The notes beneath the pieces were generated by a model. It was not told the DNA's origin. It saw nothing but the letters and a program-made list of their open reading frames with translations, and ran no database searches. This document shows positions 80 to 56,060 of a stretch of 64,000 nt of DNA, piece by piece. Position 1 is the first letter of the stretch; each line of letters begins with the position of its first letter. Position numbers and translations under genes: made by a program. Source of the DNA: Negaprion brevirostris (Eukaryota); assembly GCA_030324005.1 (NCBI GenBank), contig JARDVH010000099.1, forward strand, positions 42,209,788 to 42,273,787, in the 5' to 3' direction.

Positions 80-2165
80 ACCGTTGTGTCTATCATGGAT
101 GTACTTGAAGTATCCTTGAGTAATTATCTGATCAGAAACTAGTCAATGACTGGGAAATAGTCATTACCATGGATAGTGAGTAAATCCGTTGTGATTTCAG
201 CTCAAGGCCAAAGATATGTGGGTTAGGTTGATTGGCCATGCTGAATTGCCCCTTAGTGTCAGGGGGAATTTGCAGGGTAAATACATGGGGTTACGGGGAG
301 AGGGCACTGCAGGGATTCCATGATTCTAAGGGCATAATGGAATTTTATTGGACTGTAAATGTTCTTTGGGTTGATGTGGCTGGTGTCTCTGGCATGCTTT
401 GCACATTCTCACTGACTTCTTGATATCATTGTTGATCCCTGGCCAATATACAGCATATCTAAAGGCAAATTGCTGCAGAGACTGAAATCTGAAACTAAAA
501 CAGAAAACACTGGAAAATCTCAGCAAAGTGGGGCAGCATGGTGGCAGAGTGATTAACACAGTGCCAGGGACCCAGGTTCAATTCCAGTTCGAGTCACTGT
601 CTGTGTGGAGTTTGCAAAGTGTCCCTGTGCCTGCATGGATTTTCTCCAGGTTTCTTCCCACAGTCCAAAGACGTATGGGTTAGGTTGATTGGTGGCTAAG
701 TTCTCCCTTAGTGCCAGAGGGATTATAAGGTTACATATGTGGGGTTATGGGGGTAGGGCCTGGGTGGGATTGTTGTTGTTGCAGGCTTGATGGGCCAAAC
801 GGCCTTCTTCTGCTCTGTAGGGGACTCTATGATCCTCAAGCTAAGTCTGACAGCATCTATGGAGCCAGAATAGAGCCAACGTTTTGAGTCTTGACGAACC
901 TTTACTGGAGCTCAGTATACAGTATACAATATACCTAGCCAGGTACCTTGTTTCCTCTATGTCTATATGCCCTTGTTAACTGGTTGTCCTGGCAAAGAGT
1001 TTTGGGTACAAGCACTTACTTTTCCTTCAAAAATTACATCTCTTGAAATACCCAGTTCATCTCTATACAGCCAAAACCATCTGAGGGTTTTGGGCATTTC
1101 TTGTATCAAGCCAACATTCTGCAATGATTTTCCATGATGCCTTCAGTCATGAATCATTTGCTGTTCCCTCCTGAAGTTAGTTGCAGTGTGTTAACCAAAA
1201 GTCATCAGCTTGACTTTGAGTATGTCTCCTGTGCCATGTCTGCACCACTTAGAGACATGTGCAATTATTTTCAGATTGGGTAACCTGCTCAGTGTGTCTA
1301 AAGTAACCACCACGTTTATAATGGATTTCAAAGTTATAGCTGTGTATTTGGATCAGATGTTGTTGTAGTCTGGATGGTGCTCTTATCAGTGGCCAAATCA
1401 ATTCCAATGATTTGTGGTCAGTTTCCACAATGAATCATTTACTAAATAGAAATATGTGGAACATTGTGATACCAAATATCATAGTGAGTGTCTCATACTT
1501 CATGTTTGAATAATTGGATTGCACTTTTGATAGGCATTTGGAATCAACTGCAATTGTTTTGCCATCTTGCATAATATACACTCCTAATCCTTTTTTTAGA
1601 TGTGTCGACTTCTAAAATCGTCTCCTTTCTTCGGTTGTAGTATTGTAAATAATGCATCTCTCTTGACAATGCCTATTTAAATGACTCAGACATGACTTGA
1701 TGGTCCTTCTGCCATTCACATGGAATATACTTCCTCAACAGCTTTTTAAGTGATAATTACTCTATCGGCAAAGTAGGGTGCATGGTGCTAAGAAATTGAA
1801 AAATCTGAGGCATCTCTGCAAGTCGTCTTTGTCTGGGGAAGTTAGCACGGGTTGTACATCTTTGCCTGGGTCAAGATGAATCCTGGAGCTTGAGTATATA
1901 GAACAAAAAAAGTTAATCTGACCCTCAATCACCTGGCATTTCTTGCTGTTCGAAACAAGTCCTTCATGATGAGCTGTTGCCATCAGTGAGTGCAAATTAT
2001 GGTCATACTCATCTTTGGTTTTGCTCATCACCACAATATCATCAATGAAGCATACTCATGTGGGATACTTTCTGTAATTTTGCCCATTTGCTGCTGGAAC
2101 AGATGCTGATTGATGAATAAACCAAAGGATAATCTCTGGAAGGAAGCAGTGTCTTCAGAATGGTG
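80..2165 (-). mobile_element. Degenerate Ty3/Gypsy LTR-retrotransposon pol (RT, RNase H, integrase zinc finger), interrupted by SINEs and a fold-back element
   Basis: LPFGL..IDDIVVMSKTKDEYDHNL..NSKKC (RT); ETDHK (RNase H); VYWPGINNDIKKSVRMCKACQ (integrase H2C2); many stops and frameshifts. Confidence 0.85.
531..832 (+). mobile_element. HE1/V-SINE-type tRNA-derived SINE with CR1-type tail (3' fragment also at 208-326)
   Basis: tRNA head ggtggcagagtg...ggttcaattcc, V-domain gtctgtgtggagtttgca...cccacagtccaaaga, tail gggccaaacggcc...ctgtaggga..ctatga. Confidence 0.85.
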
Positions 2166-10447: not shown

Positions 10448-11544
10448 AGATTCAGAGTCAACTGCCTGCCTGTTGCCGCACCACCCAAAGCACATTGTAA
10501 CAGAAACTGGAACTCTTCAGTTGTATTCGCGCCTAAGCTGATCCCTGAACCAGAACCCCTAAAGAGGCCAAAGTCAGATTAAAACACCCCAATCTCCTGA
10601 CAATCAGCCTATTCACTATCCTTGGGTCTGATCAGCTGAACCCACAGGCTACCAAGGTGCACAGAGAAAGACTATACTGGACAAGAGCACTTCAGTGGTC
10701 ACAAAGTGAAATGCTCAGTAGCTTTCTGCTGATATAGCTTAACCATCACTTGCCCCTGAGTGCTAACCACTCTGGAAACCCCTTTAGTGGACATTTAGTC
10801 AGGAATTGGGCAGACAGAGTTCTGAAGCCAATGGCTTCGCTTAGGCCTGATCCCCGATAGAGAAAATTCAGAACTCGAGCCCTGTGTAAACTTTGCCATA
10901 CAGATGAATTTTGAATTCTCCTAAGTCACTGAAATCTTCCAAATCCTGGGACCAGACAATAAGCTTACTGATGCACTGTCCTGGATTTAATCCTTGAAAA
11001 CACAGAAGGGAATTGGCATTGTCCTTGCTATCTGTGTGCCCAACATGCCAGTGTCAGTGAGAGAAATTTATGTACACTTCCTCACTTCCTTCTTCAGATC
11101 ACGTTAAAAAAATGAAATAGAATTGTTTTTCTCTGGGGCAGTGAGGTATTTTGGGGGCTAAGATATAACTCCATATTTTTCTAGTATATATATATGTATA
11201 TAATTGGAGTTAACTTAGAAAATCTTAAAAATTGGAGAAAGGCCTTTCAATGATTGAAACCAAGACTGACTATGATTCAAACAAAAGAAAATTTCTGGCT
11301 TTTGGAGCTGAGACCTCGTTATCTCAGAAGGTTAGAGAAGAGATAGCAAAGGCACAATTACATATGTATAAAAAATCATTGTAGAAAGGAACACAGACAG
11401 TTTATGTTTCACGTCTGTATAGAAGGTAATAACCTTTTATGCAGATATTGGTGATGAATTAAAACACTGCCTTTGAGGGTTGTGGAAGAAGAGATGATAA
11501 ATAATTTCAAAAGGGAATTGGATAGGCATTTGAGGGAAATTGTT

Positions 11545-11885
11545 GGAAATACACAGCAGGTCTGGCAGCATCAGTGGAAAGAGAAAGTGAGTTAATCGCC
11601 GAAATCTTACCAGCTTGCCAGCCATGAGAATCAGAGTGGGCGAGGAGTGGAACATGGGAAGATCCGCTGACCTCAGGCAGGATTTTACGGTTTCAGGGTG
11701 AGCAAGGCTGTAAAGTCCCATCCAAATTTCAGGTTGATCACTTTTTGTCTGGAGGAATTCTGACGAGTTCTAACCAAATTTCATCAACCTGAAATTTCAA
11801 CTCTATTTTGTCTCTCTCCACAGATGCTGCCAGACCTGCTGAGTATGTCCAGCATTTTTGATTTTATTTCAGATTTACAACTTGC
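11545..11885. mobile_element. Fold-back (inverted pLTR) Penelope-derived element with hammerhead remnant
   Basis: Inverted arms cagcaggtctggcagcatc / gatgctgccagacctgctgag; CTGACGA 11760-11766, GAAA 11791-11794; unrelated insert at about 11600-11725. Confidence 0.65.
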
Positions 11886-22228: not shown

Positions 22229-22244
22229 ATAATCCTCTGACGTA

Positions 22245-22445
22245 AACAAAAACACTGCAAATACTCAGCAAATCAAACACCATCTGTGGAGAGAAGCAGA
22301 GTTAATGTTTCATCAGCTCTGATGAAAGATCATCTCAACATGAAATGTTAACGGTTCCTCTCTACAGATGCTGCCTGACCAGCTTGATATTTCCAGCAGT
22401 TTGTTTTTATTTCAGATCTCCAGCATCTGCAGTAGTTTTACTTTT
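22245..22445. mobile_element. Fold-back Penelope-derived element with central hammerhead remnant
   Basis: Inverted arms catctgtggagaga..gttaatgtttca / tgaaatgttaac..ctctctacagatg; CTGATGA 22319-22325, GAAA 22342-22345. Confidence 0.7.
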
Positions 22446-22615
22446 GTACTCAGTGCTCTGGTTTCGTACAGGTTCATGCAATNNNNNNNNNNNNNNNNNN
22501 NNNNNNNNNNNNNNNNNNNNNNNNNNNNNNNNNNNNNNNNNNNNNNNNNNNNNNNNNNNNNTTTAAAAATGCAGTCTTATTGAAAGTGAAATACCACTTT
22601 TCCAAATACACATAC

Positions 22616-30164: not shown

Positions 30165-30331
30165 CTGCGGTGTATAAAGAACTTGATTAGAACTATTCAG
30201 TGAGTAGTATTTGCACACAAATGAAAGATCATAAAAAAACAAGTCAAATAATTATTGTACAAATCATAAAATCATGGAATTAAAAAAAGTGTTACCATTT
30301 TAAGAGTGTGGCACAGACTTCTATAACAGAG

Positions 30332-30545
30332 TTAAAAACAGAAAATGCTGGATAAACTCAGCAGCTTTGGCAGTTTCTGTGGAGAGAGAAACATGTTTTG
30401 AGTCCATATGATCCTTCTACTGAAATTTTTGCAGAAGGGTCACATAGGCTCATTAACTCCACAGATGTGGCTAGACCTGCTGAGTTTATCCAATTTTTCC
30501 TGTTTTTATTTCAGATTTTCAACATTCACAGTACTTTGCTTCTAT
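30332..30545. mobile_element. Fold-back Penelope-derived element
   Basis: Inverted arms aaacagaaaatgctggataaactcagcag / ctgctgagtttatccaatttttcctgttttt; central gatccttc..gaagggtca. Confidence 0.7.
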
Positions 30546-31356
30546 AACAGAGTACAATGTTGTAGGTCTTCAAACAGTAAAGGTTACCAGTCTATCCAGA
30601 GAATGAATGGAAATCCCTTGTTTGTGCATTTTGTCTTTCTGGTTATGATACTTGCCCTCACTATGATGATACTTGGGTTTGGAAGGCAGTACATTAATCA
30701 CTTTATCTGATGTAGTTTTGGTTATGAAATGTCAAATTTCTTAAACAGTAAATGGATAATTGATCAGCAGTGATAACAGACTGGATTTTACAGTAGTTAC
30801 AAGCTGAAGCTCTGACTGGACGTAAGAGATTTAAATTCCACATATTTTATAGAAGAAAAACGATGTCACGGTACACGAGTGAAAAATGATTAACCTGTCA
30901 GCCATCCTTGGACATATCACTAACAACATTGAGAAACAAGTCTACAATTTGGAAGTAAAATGGAATCTAATAAATTAGTAGCCAACAGATGAGTAGTTTA
31001 CACTGACACTTGTTTAATATGCAGTGTTACAGGAGAAGACTTAACCTATTATTTGCACTTTTCTGAATGGTTAAAAAACAAAGTTGAAATGCAAAGTAAC
31101 AATGGGTTACTACCCCCCTATCAGTAGGAAAAAAAAACTAGACTGTTCTTAATAGGATGTGATATACTTTCCCGCATTAACACAATACCATGTGGCAGTG
31201 CCTTGGTATCCAGTAAAAAGAACAATAGCCCATCCCAAATTTAATCAGAAAATTGTGTGAAAGTATGATCTAAAGACTACATTGTTCAGCCCAGGAAAGT
31301 GATTTACCATGGCTTCAAACAGTTTCGGTTAATTAATTAATCGGAAACAACTTTAC

Positions 31357-35259: not shown

Positions 35260-36379
35260 CTGAAAACAAAATAATTAATCACAATTATGCATCATGACTA
35301 TCCACTCTTACAAGCAGAATATTGTACTGAACAGCAGTGTACAACTTAACTTTTCATTCCTACATGCTAACACCTGCAAGCAAAACATCAACTTTACAAC
35401 ACATAGAACAGAGTTACAATATACTTGGGAAAATCTCCATCATATTAACCTGAACTGCACCCAATTAAGATAATTAATCTTCAGGTATTTATTGTTATGT
35501 TCATGAAATATTGGCCCTTTGGCTAGGATCAAGCCCAAAATCAGGTGCAATGCCTTTTCTTGTCAGCTTGGGTCTTGTATGTCTCTCTTGTGGGGACTAT
35601 GAATTGGATTCAGTTTGAATTTGAAATAGTTTTTGGAACAAGGAAATGGATTCAGGGTTTGCCCCATCCACTCTGCACACTGGCTTTGTAATTTTAAGAA
35701 TGGGATAAAATTAAAAAAATAAACTGCATTATCCTGGAATATTAATTTCATAGCAAATGGCCACAATATCATCAGAAAAGAGCAGAAATAATATTAGAAT
35801 GAACACAGACTCTTCAGCAGAATGTCTAACAATAAACATTTTCTTTTGAAATGCAGTTTACCTAAATATTAGAAATTATAAGTGACATACACAATGTGAT
35901 AGAAAAATAAAAGGCTCAGTCCTATTGACTCATTTTTGTACTAAAAATATTGAATTAACCATAATTTGGACTCAAGTGTTAACAGAACAGCAAGCTGTGG
36001 AAATTCAGCAATAAAAAATAGTTGGATAATTTGAATTAAGCAATTTTGAGTAAAAAGAGGGCTGTAAACTATCTTTGTAAAGCACTTTTGAGCTGTTTTA
36101 CTACCCCAAAGGCACTTTATGAATGCATGTTGCTTTTTTCTGTTTCAAACAGTAACGTGAATTATTAAAAGCCAAACTCTAAAGGATGATTTTATCATGA
36201 TTTTTATGCTAAATATTAGAGATAGTGCACCAATAACTGAAACAACAAAGCTCTTAAAATAAATAATTTATAGAAATAAGTATTTAATTATCAAAAACTG
36301 TCTCGAGGGTTTTTTGTTTGTAAATATTTTATTTCTATAAACATTGGTAAATTTGGGGAGCAGAAATAAAAAACTTTCC

Positions 36380-37620: not shown

Positions 37621-38323
37621 AAAACAGTCCTAATTATTCAACTTGCTGGTGATTCCAGTGCTCCATGAATCAAAATCGTCTTCTGTTCCATACTTTGAAG
37701 AACGTATTCAACTATCTGATCTGTTTGATTCCACGTCAATTTGTAACTAGCTCAGTTAGGAATCCAAGGATTTATTACCTTTGAGGCAAACTCCCTCAGC
37801 AGAACTCATTCTACATGTCATTGATTCCTATTTGGATTCTGCTCCTCATTCTCAATGTGCATTTTTTTTTTTAGCTGCAAGGAGATATCTTTAACCCTGA
37901 CACTGAGCAGCCAAGTCAGGCTTTGGATTCCTGACTGTGGCTACAGAGAACAGTATACATCCACCTGACTATACTGTCATCTATCACACCATCTTACTTC
38001 CTCCATTTACATGGTTTCCCAGACCACACAGTTCCTGCAATCTTTCTTCATTACCAAACAGATAAAAAGTACTTCATACCTGTTGAATAAAGCCAAAGAT
38101 TGAGATTCCTCCATCTCTGTATCTTAGGTCTTCATTTCAGCCTACTTCTCAGTTACATTCTTTTGTACTTAATCAAAACTACCTAAACCCAAGTGGCCTG
38201 ATTGTTCTTCAATGTCTGCAACTCGTAGTCATAGACCCTCAATCTCTAACTAGTCTCCATTAAGTTTCATATTGCTCTGGTTCAACACATGACCTGCCCT
38301 ACCATCCCAATCTAACTTGGTGC

Positions 38324-38987
38324 TATATTTAATTAGGGATTTTATTCAATTGTTACTTTTGGTTATTAACAAACTAATTTATATAATTTATTTTGTCAAA
38401 TTTCCCAGTTCTTATCTGGAACATAAAAATAAATGTAGATATTATATTATGTATAGTTGCAATAAACAATACCTTTTATAAACCAGTCTCCTTCATTTGA
38501 ATGCTTTTATTGCCAATATATTTGTGACACCTGAGGTGGTAACCAAATTGACTGCATCTTTAGTTGCTATAAAAACTTAAAAGATAATTGCAGACTCAAG
38601 TTTAAGATAATAGAGAAAATTATGTGTTTTCATCCGAGGTCATGATTATTTCTTTCACAAGTCTTTCTGCAGCAATAACTCAAGGTCTTTAAAGCTGCTG
38701 TTACACAACCACTTTTAGATGATATATTCAGATAGTAGATGATAGATGCAGTCAATTTGGTTACCACCTCAGATGTAACAAATATAGTTGCAACAAAAGC
38801 ATACAAATGAAGGAGACTTGTTTATAAAAAGTATTGTTTATTGCAATGATACAGATATAATATCTGGAACATATAAAAATAAATGTAGATAAAAATTGAG
38901 AAATTTGACTAAATAATAACTTAAATTATATAAATTAGTTTGTTAATAACCAGATTTACAATTGAATAAAATCCCTAATTAAATATA
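38324..38987. repeat. Long inverted repeat: arms 38324-38559 and 38744-38987, spacer about 185 nt
   Basis: tatatttaattagggattttattcaattg...ggtaaccaaattgactgcatct is mirrored by agatgcagtcaatttggttacc...caattgaataaaatccctaattaaatata. Confidence 0.92.
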
Positions 38988-39719
38988 ACATATAATATAT
39001 TCAAGATTACAGAGCACAACATCTGGAAGTGCAAGATCCCAATTCCAGCCAGTTCGAATTTGCACATTATCAACTAACAGCCTGGTGGAAAACTGAAACC
39101 ACCTCAAGATGCAATAAACATTATGCGGATTACAGAATAAATTATTCCCTAGTGTTTCACAAGGAGCACTGGTTAGGTCGCTAGAGAAGCCATAGTTGAA
39201 AACTGGAAAAATGTAAACATTTAATGAATGTAATAATCCAATGGTATAACTACAGGTTGGCAAATCACACAAGTTTTTTGTTTCCTTTACACTGACCACA
39301 AAACAAGTTTCCTAAGGCCTGCTAGCTGCACATTTTTGCTAGTCTGTCAAATCAATGATTAGCAAATTTCTGATGATGATGGCCAAGAAAACACAAGACA
39401 GCATTATTTCCAGTAGTGCATTATAAATTGCTGAAAACATCCATTAACTATAATATTTCAATTATGTTGTTTTGCACATACACAGTGTACCCATGTTACA
39501 AGTTAGCTCCAAACTCCAGTGCCTTCAACAAGCTGCCCACTACTCAAGCTGAGGTGCAACATCAAGCTGTATTAAAGTTATCAAATCCAGTTGGACATTC
39601 TGCAAAAAGTTCCAGTACATAAACTCTCAAATCCAACTATGCCATTATTGGTCAGCTGGCATAGCCATCCTTTCCACACCCTGTTTTCCCCCACCAATTG
39701 AGAATAAATAGATACCTGA

Positions 39720-51758: not shown

Positions 51759-52264
51759 TTTAAAAAAAAATGGCTGTTTCTTTGAGGTTCATTTAAAACT
51801 GGTAAATAAAGTTCAATAATGACATTACTTTACATTCATGAAAGACAGAATCACACTTGCTAAACAACAGCAGCTTGACAAATGTGAGTCACAATGGTGC
51901 TTTACAGCAATCTCGATTTAAATGTAGTTTCCAGTGCAAGTCAAAACACATTAGCTTCTATTATAATTTAAAACTAACTGAAAATGATATTTGTTTCTAT
52001 TGATAGTTTTACAGTCTGAAAATAATTATAGCTCATTGTATTGTAGTTTGCAACCTCACCTTTTCCAAATATTTGGCAAAAATCTGCACATATCGATTTA
52101 GTGTTTAAACCCCAAGGGGTAGAGAGGCAGATATTATTCAGAAACCATGTACACAAATTTAGTGCAATTCAGACATTTGCGACTTTGACTTATTCTAATC
52201 ACCTAGAACATGCAATGCAAGTGGCCTAATGTACAAAATGAATACATTTGTTTTAGATTTCCAG

Positions 52265-53022
52265 CATGAGTAAAAGTAGAAAATGCTGGAAATACTCAGC
52301 GGGTCAGGCAGTATTGAAGAGAAAGAAAGAGTTAATGTTTCAGATCAATAACCATAAGTCAGAACTAGAAAAAAGTTAGGGATTTTGTCTAGATGGAGAA
52401 GGGGTGGGACAGGGAAGGAATGATCTTTTATGGGGTGGAAAGCAGAGTGATTAAATAATAAAAAAGACGGTGCAAAGCAAAAAGGGGCTGGTAATGATGC
52501 ATGAAAAAGGGGAGTTGTAAAGGAGCTGTAAATATTAACAGTAGAATGATTACCAGTACTGGCTCTTTGCAACAAATATAGAAGCAGTGGTTATGAAGAT
52601 AACTTACCAAACTCACCGAGTTCAACAATTTCAGATATTAACATCACTTCCACATTTTCCAGACAGCTGTTGTTATTTAAAGCCTTTGGGACTATTTGAT
52701 TCTTTAAATAAAAACTTGCACTTACACAGCACCTTTCACAACTTCAGTATGGAGGAAGCACTTAAAAAAATACATTATTACTGTTATAATGGTCACTGTT
52801 GTAATGTGCTTGTCCCATTACCACTCCTTTTGCCTGGCTCCATCATCCCTTTGTCATTTAAAATCACTCTTGCCTACCAATGTATTACATCCCTTTCCTG
52901 TTGTTCTTTCCTTTCCTTGTTTAAAAGGCTGTTAAAATCTAACCGTATCAAATTAAACCTTAGATCTGTTTCTCTTTCCAAAGATGCTGCTAAATATTTC
53001 CCACATTTTCTGTTTTTAATTT
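52265..53022. mobile_element. Inverted pair of Penelope-type pLTR arms (52265-52530 and 52805-53022)
   Basis: gaaaatgctggaaatactcagc..gttaatgtttcag arm and reverse arm ..ctgtttctctttccaaagatgctgc..cattttctgttttta; hammerhead remnant at 52330-52366 (minus). Confidence 0.65.
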
Positions 53023-53548
53023 TGTGTTCTTCAGGTTCTGTTGGGACGTGCTACAACTTCTGGGATGAATTCTGCAATCCAACATTCATCTATGGTACAT
53101 GTAATACACTGATTTTAACACTGGATGTCTGCTGTTTCCAGCAACAAGACAGGTAGGCAACATCCAAATGAATAATACTTTACTGGCTAATATTATCCTG
53201 CCAAGTTGAAATTTGATTTCACTTGAATTTATGACAATACTAAAAATATTACCACTAATAACCAAATATTCAGGGTATTCAGCATAAACTAGGCTTGTTG
53301 GCAAGTACACCTCCAGTGAAAGCATGACTTTACTAAGTACTGTGGCTGAATAATGAGAACACATTTTGATACATGGAGTACATAGTTACTTTTTAAATAT
53401 TACATTGTCATCAGCATTGCATTCAGTACCTTCTACTCTTATTTTGGTGGACATTGTCAGGAATAATGATACAGCAAGAATAAATTAAAAGTAAAAAGAG
53501 GTCAAGAAGAAAGTCTCCAATCCAGTCCTGTTGTATTGCAACAATCCT

Positions 53549-55236: not shown

Positions 55237-56060
55237 GTGGAGATGCTGGTGTCGGACTGGGGTAAGCACAGTAAGTAGTCTCAACACCAGGTTAAAGTCG
55301 AGTAGGTTTATTTAGTAGCACAAGCCACAAGCTTTTGGAGCGCTGCCCCTTCGTCAGGTGAGTGGGAGTTGTGTTCACAAACAGGGCGTATATAGTCACA
55401 AACTCAATTTACAAGATAATCATTGGAATGCGAGTCTCGACAGGTACAGATAATGTGAATGGAGAGAGGGTTTAAGAGATGTGTGTTGTCTCCAGGCAGG
55501 ACAGTTAGTGAGATTTTTGCAAACCCAGCCAGTATGGTGGGGGGTTACAGATAGTGTGACATGAATCCAAGATCCTGGTTGAGACTGTCCTCGTGTGCAG
55601 AACTTGGCTATCAGTCTCTGCTCAGCAACTTTGTGCTGTTGTGCGTCGTGAAGGCCGTCTTGGAGAACGCTTACCCGAAGGTCAGAGGCTGAATGCCCGT
55701 GACCGCTGAAGTGTTTGCCAACTGGAAGAGAACACTCTTGCCTGGTGATTGTTGAGAGATGTCCATTCATCCATTGTCATAGCGTCTGCACGGTCTCTCC
55801 AGTGTACCAAGCTTCAGGACATCCTTTCCTGTAGTGTATCAGGTAAACAACGTTGGCCGAGTTGCAAGAGTATGTACCGTGTACCTGGTGGGTGGTGTTC
55901 TCACGTGAGATGATGGCAACTGTGTTGATGATCCAGCATGTCTTGCAGAGGTTGCTGTAGCAGGGTTGTGTGGTGTTGTGGTCGCTGTTCTCCAGAAGAC
56001 TGGGTAGTTTGCTGCAGGCAATGGTCTGTTTTGAGGTTGTGCGATTGTTGTTATTATGAA
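55237..56060 (-). mobile_element. Penelope-like retroelement 3' part: GIY-YIG endonuclease plus pLTR
   Basis: PCYSNLCKTC..YSCNSANVVYLI..CPEAWYTGET..MNGH..LPVGKHF..HSASDLRVSVL..AEQRLIAKF. Confidence 0.9.
55325..55363 (-). ncRNA. Minimal hammerhead ribozyme motif (G12-to-A decayed) in a Penelope pLTR
   Basis: cac-CTGACGA-a-GGGGC agc GCTCC-AAA-AGCT-T-gtg; stem I cac/gtg intact. Confidence 0.7.

Follow-up and report, generated by a model that had tools for sequence, protein, structure and literature searches.

Inverted insertions of Penelope-like elements (PLEs) are known, and the accessible parts of two papers (PMC8557442, PMC3846280) describe inverted 5'-truncated pLTRs with a one-sided tail, TSDs of 8-10 bp and palindromes at the junctions. 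A putative TATA and Inr were also placed in a rotifer pLTR in the available text of the latter (PMC3846280). Minimal hammerheads were present in all the PLE pLTRs examined by Cervera and de la Pena (2014), and the part of that paper available to us (PMC4209133) further reports pairs of motifs that lie 100-700 bp from each other on opposite strands and ties dispersed motifs to truncated PLEs. Animal retrozymes, as described in the accessible portion of a preprint (bioRxiv 10.64898/2026.07.22.740005), are tandem units with intact ribozymes. With an anole PLE in vitro, both strands were cut and extended, and the RT started at two internal sites bounding the tail on an uncleaved RNA template (PMC11167929). 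Here we analysed a family of fold-back repeats in a window of DNA from Negaprion brevirostris (the window being the whole stretch of 64,000 nucleotides), for which an earlier note had proposed a retrozyme-like derivative of Penelope.

A search profile made from 27 copies of the arm was applied to the window and to the sampled genome. In the window it returned 10 arms, all at the five places named earlier, and the head-to-head geometry of the four inverted pairs was confirmed; these pairs are real but not symmetric, as one arm carries an extra tail of 30-40 nt. The left arm of the copy at 22245 (22243..22318, minus strand; profile match 22241-22333) is an inverted tail-less pLTR end that reaches about +3 and lacks ~16 nt where stem II would lie, a deletion bounded by TTTCA microhomologies near 22311. 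Its right arm (22315..22439, plus strand; 116 bits, model positions 2-130) starts at the inferred +1 base (A22315), takes in the hammerhead relic and stops where the PLE tail ends; the profile placed the tail at 22410..22439 (+, ~30 nt), on this arm only. No TSD was visible in the flanks of this copy. The other three pairs are given without strand. The fold-back insertion at 11539..11881 (profile matches 11539-11595 and 11766-11881) has a left arm composed of 11539-11595 and about 11727-11754, and a right arm (11766-11881) with a partial tail. An unrelated dispersed repeat of 130 nt (11597-11725), which had 12 other matches in the fetched loci, interrupts the left arm. The CTGACGA reported at 11760 does occur, but in a short duplicate of the arm tip at the junction, and the in-register core at 11770-11776 is decayed. 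Short direct duplicates of the first ~10 nt of the arm were often seen at junctions (11757-11766; loci L267, L271, L276 and L277), as if the RT had re-copied the RNA tip.

The third fold-back insertion at 30333..30541 (profile matches 30329-30424 and 30428-30541) has a tail-less left arm and a tailed right arm, both beginning near +3 to +4, and is flanked by a TSD of 15 bp (left copy 30318..30332, plus strand; right copy 30539-30553; 15/15 identical). The fourth and longer pair at 52270..53022 (profile matches 52270-52366 and 52955-53022) carries ~250 nt of the 3' UTR of the parent on each arm, both arms being without tail, and its right arm starts within the final 10 codons of the GIY-YIG ORF (52609-52641). 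The family had been described as having no ORF, which is true of the 22245 copy but not of this one. A tail-like fragment in direct orientation at 52248-52268, just outside its left arm, possibly reflects insertion into the tail of an older copy. The single arm said to be split by a SINE was found as a solo tailed arm of a sister subfamily at 463..912 (minus strand; profile matches 463-552 and 845-911), which starts at +1 (~912) and is interrupted by a SINE-like insert at about 528-835. Elsewhere in the window, an AT-rich inverted repeat was noticed at 38321-38990, its ~250-nt arms showing 83-100% complementarity block by block; it had no other copy in the loci fetched. A weak U2 snRNA-like match at 35503-35713 (Rfam, 24.8 bits, below the gathering score) is possibly a pseudogene or chance.

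The abundance of the family was estimated from a random sample of 140 arbitrary 10-kb stretches (1.20 Mb without N). The profile search found 108 arms in this sample and 0 in the reversed control, which bears out the claim of a high copy number. The density of ~72 insertions/Mb (about 70) in a genome of 2.69 Gb gives, by extrapolation, a genome-wide count on the order of 1.7 x 10^5 insertions (roughly 10^5). Solo arms made up 66 of the 108, most insertions measured only 100-270 nt, and several subfamilies were present. The divergence of the arms from the majority sequence at non-CpG positions had a median of 15% and a minimum of 5% (n=100), and a search with an exact pattern representing the window's subfamily before decay gave 0 genome matches. 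The 22245 insertion was found at the same site in contigs from three organisms, as was the 30332 insertion, one organism being common to both sets. A search for an empty site of the 30332 insertion returned none, all three related DNA sets examined carrying the insertion. The divergent holders differed by 1-3% in element and flanks alike and one holder was identical, the counts being few. No holder was recorded as RNA, and the contigs examined cover element and flank in one piece. The copies at 22245 and 30332 are old and fixed.

When the longer copy at 52600-53030 was used for searching and the matches were read upstream, a pyrimidine-rich UTR of ~250 nt came first and then the terminal part of an ORF, in which a CxxC linker and a GIY-YIG signature were seen. 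PF01541 gave 62 matches in the genome, with E values of 6e-5 to 1e-3 on single loci. The arm lay ~250-800 nt downstream of GIY-YIG matches on the same strand in three of 20 loci (L065, L074 and L080), and likewise downstream on the same strand in three of six stretches (L083, L084 and L086), so that the GIY-YIG Penelope partner sharing the arm, which the earlier note had proposed to look for, was found. Locus L083 holds a degraded RT and EN, then the UTR and then the arm; its alignment to an intact 767-aa PLE ORF of another family (Pfam RVT_1 and GIY-YIG) gave E values of 9e-15 for the RT and 2e-29 for the EN. With the EN fragment as query, a sequence search of the PDB gave 0 matches. Because the arm is contiguous upstream with the UTR and with an ORF for the RT, CxxC linker and GIY-YIG domain, its sequence context identifies it as the pLTR end (3' end) of an EN+ PLE, in agreement with the Penelope origin suggested earlier. 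A C-x4-C-x2-C linker was read in the translations of L083, L084 and L076. A CX2-5CxxC linker between RT and EN belongs to the Neptune clade in the available text of PMC8557442, and by the linker motif alone the parent is likely of Neptune type. Only broken copies of this arm family were seen and no intact parent was found in the genome; the long copies are interrupted by assembly gaps and L083 starts at an N run, which bears on any reading of a pLTR-ORF-pLTR layout.

Other PLE families were also noticed. The minus strand of the window at 55270-55990 holds a remnant of a second, different family with a GIY-YIG fragment (tblastn E 2e-8), a 3' UTR and, near 55360-55320, a hammerhead-like motif of its own. 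The intact 767-aa RT and GIY-YIG ORF with a hammerhead downstream was present at L082 (G000:C4716) and also at L066 and L078. The contig of L082 is unplaced, 2.8 kb long and of 52% GC vs 39% in the window, and this other PLE family is either young or from a contaminant.

A relic of a minimal type I hammerhead was located at 22315..22353 (+) from the sequence, its folding and the published minimal-hammerhead consensus (in the available part of PMC4209133). The 5' strand of stem I is at 22315-22318 and the predicted cut falls after 22349; the hammerhead-like motif claimed for this copy was seen as CTGATGA at 22319-22325 and GAAA at 22342-22345. The right arm has a broken stem II and the left arm has lost it by deletion, and the hammerhead as written is predicted to be non-functional. 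The majority sequence of the family has both core boxes, stems I and II and the palindromic helix III of a minimal type I hammerhead. An Rfam scan gave no hammerhead match in the window or in four loci with well-kept copies, where it returned generic hairpin matches only, all below gathering scores. As Rfam is silent, the grounds for calling a hammerhead are the motif, the stems and the published minimal consensus, and these support a minimal type I hammerhead ancestry. At pair 2 of stem I, C-G alternates with T-A (p=0.0013), and at pair 1 of stem II, G-C alternates with A-T (p=0.02); this covariation amounts to one or two events between subfamilies, consistent with selection in the parent elements. 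Covariation of U3-A8 in the core of the random sample gave counts of 5 vs 4, 13 and 26 (p=0.27). A U3-A8 core variant is reportedly known from Schistosoma PLEs. In one subfamily TTGACAA apparently replaces CTGANGA (L097, L152:8791, L174, L204, L065, L074 and L080).

The core was intact in six of 52 hammerheads, and the core together with the stems in one. At non-CpG positions the conservation of the core was 0.88 vs 0.84 at downstream positions (p=0.52). A core no better conserved than its flanks had been named beforehand as speaking against a maintained ribozyme, and this part of the earlier proposal did not survive. The predicted folding energy of 22236-22450 is -63.5 kcal/mol (z -5.3), which none of 200 shuffles equalled, and in the predicted fold-back the antisense arm pairs with the hammerhead core. 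Forcing the hammerhead shape would cost 22 kcal/mol at 22245 and 26-29 kcal/mol in two well-kept pairs, vs only 0-2 kcal/mol in single arms of the same two pairs; three of the five pairs tried were without GAAA and were left unscored.

The arrangement of the arms was analysed in the random sample. Neighbours within 1.5 kb among the 108 arms were head-to-head in 21 cases, tail-to-tail in three and on the same strand in nine, and the 3' ends fell into two groups at model positions ~90-108 and 126-134. Exactly one arm was tailed in 20 of 21 random-sample pairs (p=1e-5) and in 31 of 38 pattern-selected pairs, the seven rule-breakers comprising four pairs with no tail and three with both arms tailed. 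The excess of head-to-head neighbours and the one-sided tail uphold the suggested resemblance to inverted-pLTR Penelope insertions. Direct repeats of at least 10 nt, with one mismatch allowed, flanked 17 of 52 insertions with defined ends vs 1-2% of swapped-flank controls, and the TSD lengths were variable (9-16 bp). Junctions and arm lengths differed between loci, and the junctions of the 38 pairs varied widely. Tailed and tail-less arms (29 pairs) had one consensus except at two CpG-type sites. Because the junctions vary and both kinds of arm share a consensus, each hairpin was likely formed at insertion and not mobilised as a unit.

The 5' ends of the arms were distributed unevenly. Arms were lost at 0.7-2% per base along the length; over the predicted cleavage site they stopped at 0.007/nt vs 0.0075-0.011 in adjoining bins, with no pile-up there. 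Among the 53 arms that reach +1 to +5, 17 clearly continue upstream into the UTR, a few are borderline and most others stop, so that about two thirds of the arms reaching the first base of the hammerhead end at it. A separate set comprised the first 30 of 1432 exact matches; of these, +1 was the end point for 21 and nine continued, four partial-UTR copies having been reassigned by eye from the script's result of 25 and five. The best TATA-like word was at -30/-31 in 11 of the 17 upstream-extended arms of the random sample, and a TATA word stood at this position in 83 of the 100 genome matches listed first out of 213 (hand count), a spacing that is partly inherited within a few subfamilies. The +1 base is the A of a YYAG initiator-like motif. 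G at -1, as a cap might leave it, was enriched genome-wide (146 vs 70), but a 1-nt fold-back would give the same letter; it was present in only 2 of 16 script-classed flank solos. Because the promoter of D. virilis Penelope is internal and TATA-less, according to the available part of PMC2377424, an arrangement with TATA before the start is not universal among PLEs. In the literature searched, which comprised openly accessible main texts, no paper was found on a 5' pile-up or on twin priming for PLEs.

These repeats are quite probably dead 5'-truncated insertions of an EN+ (likely Neptune-type) PLE, with each fold-back likely assembled on site from two separately primed cDNAs. The GIY-YIG domain would make a staggered cut at the target, and the RT would prime on both target strands at two internal start sites of the RNA, one giving a tailed and the other a tail-less cDNA. 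Copying would pass through the uncleaved hammerhead and often run off the 5' end of the transcript, which may be the first base of stem I. The 3' ends of the two cDNAs would be joined by microhomology, often at an AGCT palindrome, and the copies would afterwards decay neutrally. We lean slightly towards the wider view that the stubs may form an in vivo fossil record, in which one RNP primes both strands coordinately, copies the uncleaved hammerhead and runs off a TATA-defined start at the first base of the ribozyme. If this is true, the long-puzzling inverted pLTR with its one-sided tail would be explained, and ribozyme cleavage would not define the template. The end statistics lead to the exact predictions that transcription begins at the A of stem I and that each product has one tailed and one tail-less arm.

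The main competitor keeps the same PLE origin and makes the inverted arm by self-priming (snap-back), for instance on an antisense template. It is published for rotifer Penelope elements (in the accessible text of PMC3846280) and would account for the perfect palindromic junctions in 69 of 1432 exact 20-mer matches and for the few folded-back bases on some solos (L307, L322 and L324). Lopsided pairs, however, mostly had the tail on the truncated arm and none on the arm that reaches +1 (13/19 and 6/6 cases, 19/25 in all); the exceptions among the 19 had the tail on the +1 arm only (three), on both (two) or on neither (one). Since a snap-back copy cannot hold sequence absent from its template, two separately primed cDNAs fit better than self-priming, in keeping with the behaviour of the anole PLE in vitro (PMC11167929). 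Tail-less pairs were also rare (1/21 and 4/38) though 26 of 47 boundary solos were without tail, and we regard snap-back as unlikely. The same PLE origin could also be combined with a 5' pile-up at a 3' splice site, through a spliced template or host-exon splicing, in place of a transcription start. Pyrimidines predominate in the 20 nt ahead of +1, the last three of which read YAG, as at a 3' splice site, and the D. virilis Penelope intron ends at helix I (in the part of PMC4209133 available). Against this, the boundary copies keep the AG, the TATA word lies at the canonical -30/-31 distance and the 47 boundary solos share neither an upstream sequence nor an upstream exon, which argues against a spliced leader. 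A splice-site origin of the boundary thus appears distinctly unlikely.

The earlier proposal of a non-autonomous, retrozyme-like fold-back unit, mobilised whole with a maintained ribozyme and a hairpin or circular RNA, draws on the high copy number, the strong hairpin and the covariation of the stems from one subfamily to another (p=0.0013 and 0.02). Behind that covariation stand one or two events in parent lineages, and the junctions are heterogeneous without arm-specific mutations. The core and stems are intact in 1/52 hammerheads, the core is conserved no more than its flanks, and it is buried in a hairpin that disfavours the hammerhead fold by 22-29 kcal/mol. Tandem units were not seen either: none of the eight same-strand neighbour pairs within 500 bp that were inspected was a tandem array of a shared unit, and the window has no head-to-tail array of the element. 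We consider this reading very improbable, and the idea of an under-described RNA system gives way to old, decayed remnants of a retrotransposon type that is already known. A DNA-transposon MITE, the arms being its terminal inverted repeats, would have short inverted arms and mostly copies without ORF, as seen here; the earlier note had listed this outcome as contrary to its own reading. It was ruled out, with a residual probability that is practically negligible, by the asymmetric arms (66/108 solo), by TSDs that vary from 9 to 16 bp with no fixed length and by the contiguity of the arm with a PLE ORF for RT and GIY-YIG.

Two separately primed cDNAs are the preferred reading, and the end statistics speak for twin priming, with two start sites and an uncleaved RNA template. 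Their value lies in evidence on two open PLE questions, the formation of inverted pLTRs and the role of the hammerhead. The element itself is ordinary, a set of decayed PLE insertions in a published layout, and merits a repeat-library entry. Among the closest known systems, Pen2/Pen2a of Adineta vaga (available parts of PMC3846280, with the scheme in PMC8557442) shares the head-to-head inverted 5'-truncated pLTR, a tail of 30-40 bp at one end, TSDs of 8-16 bp, junction palindromes and a putative TATA and Inr in the pLTR. The family described here differs from it in that insertions are mostly 100-270 nt, number ~10^5 and have 5' ends piled at one base; the pile-up and the bias of the tail to the short arm are not reported for Pen2/Pen2a in those parts. 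The minimal hammerheads of metazoan PLEs (PMC4209133, in its accessible text) have, as here, a type I core, a palindromic ACGT helix III, an extra A before stem II and mostly solo motifs, whereas two motifs often abut directly in our family, and cartilaginous fish are absent from that text. PAc (Poseidon of Anolis carolinensis, PMC11167929) has two 3'-end sites 30-40 nt apart and 3' ends ~100-135 nt past the hammerhead, as found here; it belongs to another clade, and that work neither explains inverted insertions nor maps the 5' run-off. Non-LTR retrozymes, as far as the available part of the preprint describes them, are likewise derived from PLE pLTRs, non-coding and provided with a type I hammerhead, but they are head-to-tail tandems with intact ribozymes in consecutive units, whereas the copies here are head-to-head or solo and their ribozymes are dead. 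The inverted-pLTR layout with minimal hammerheads is already known, and the end statistics are the informative part of this family.
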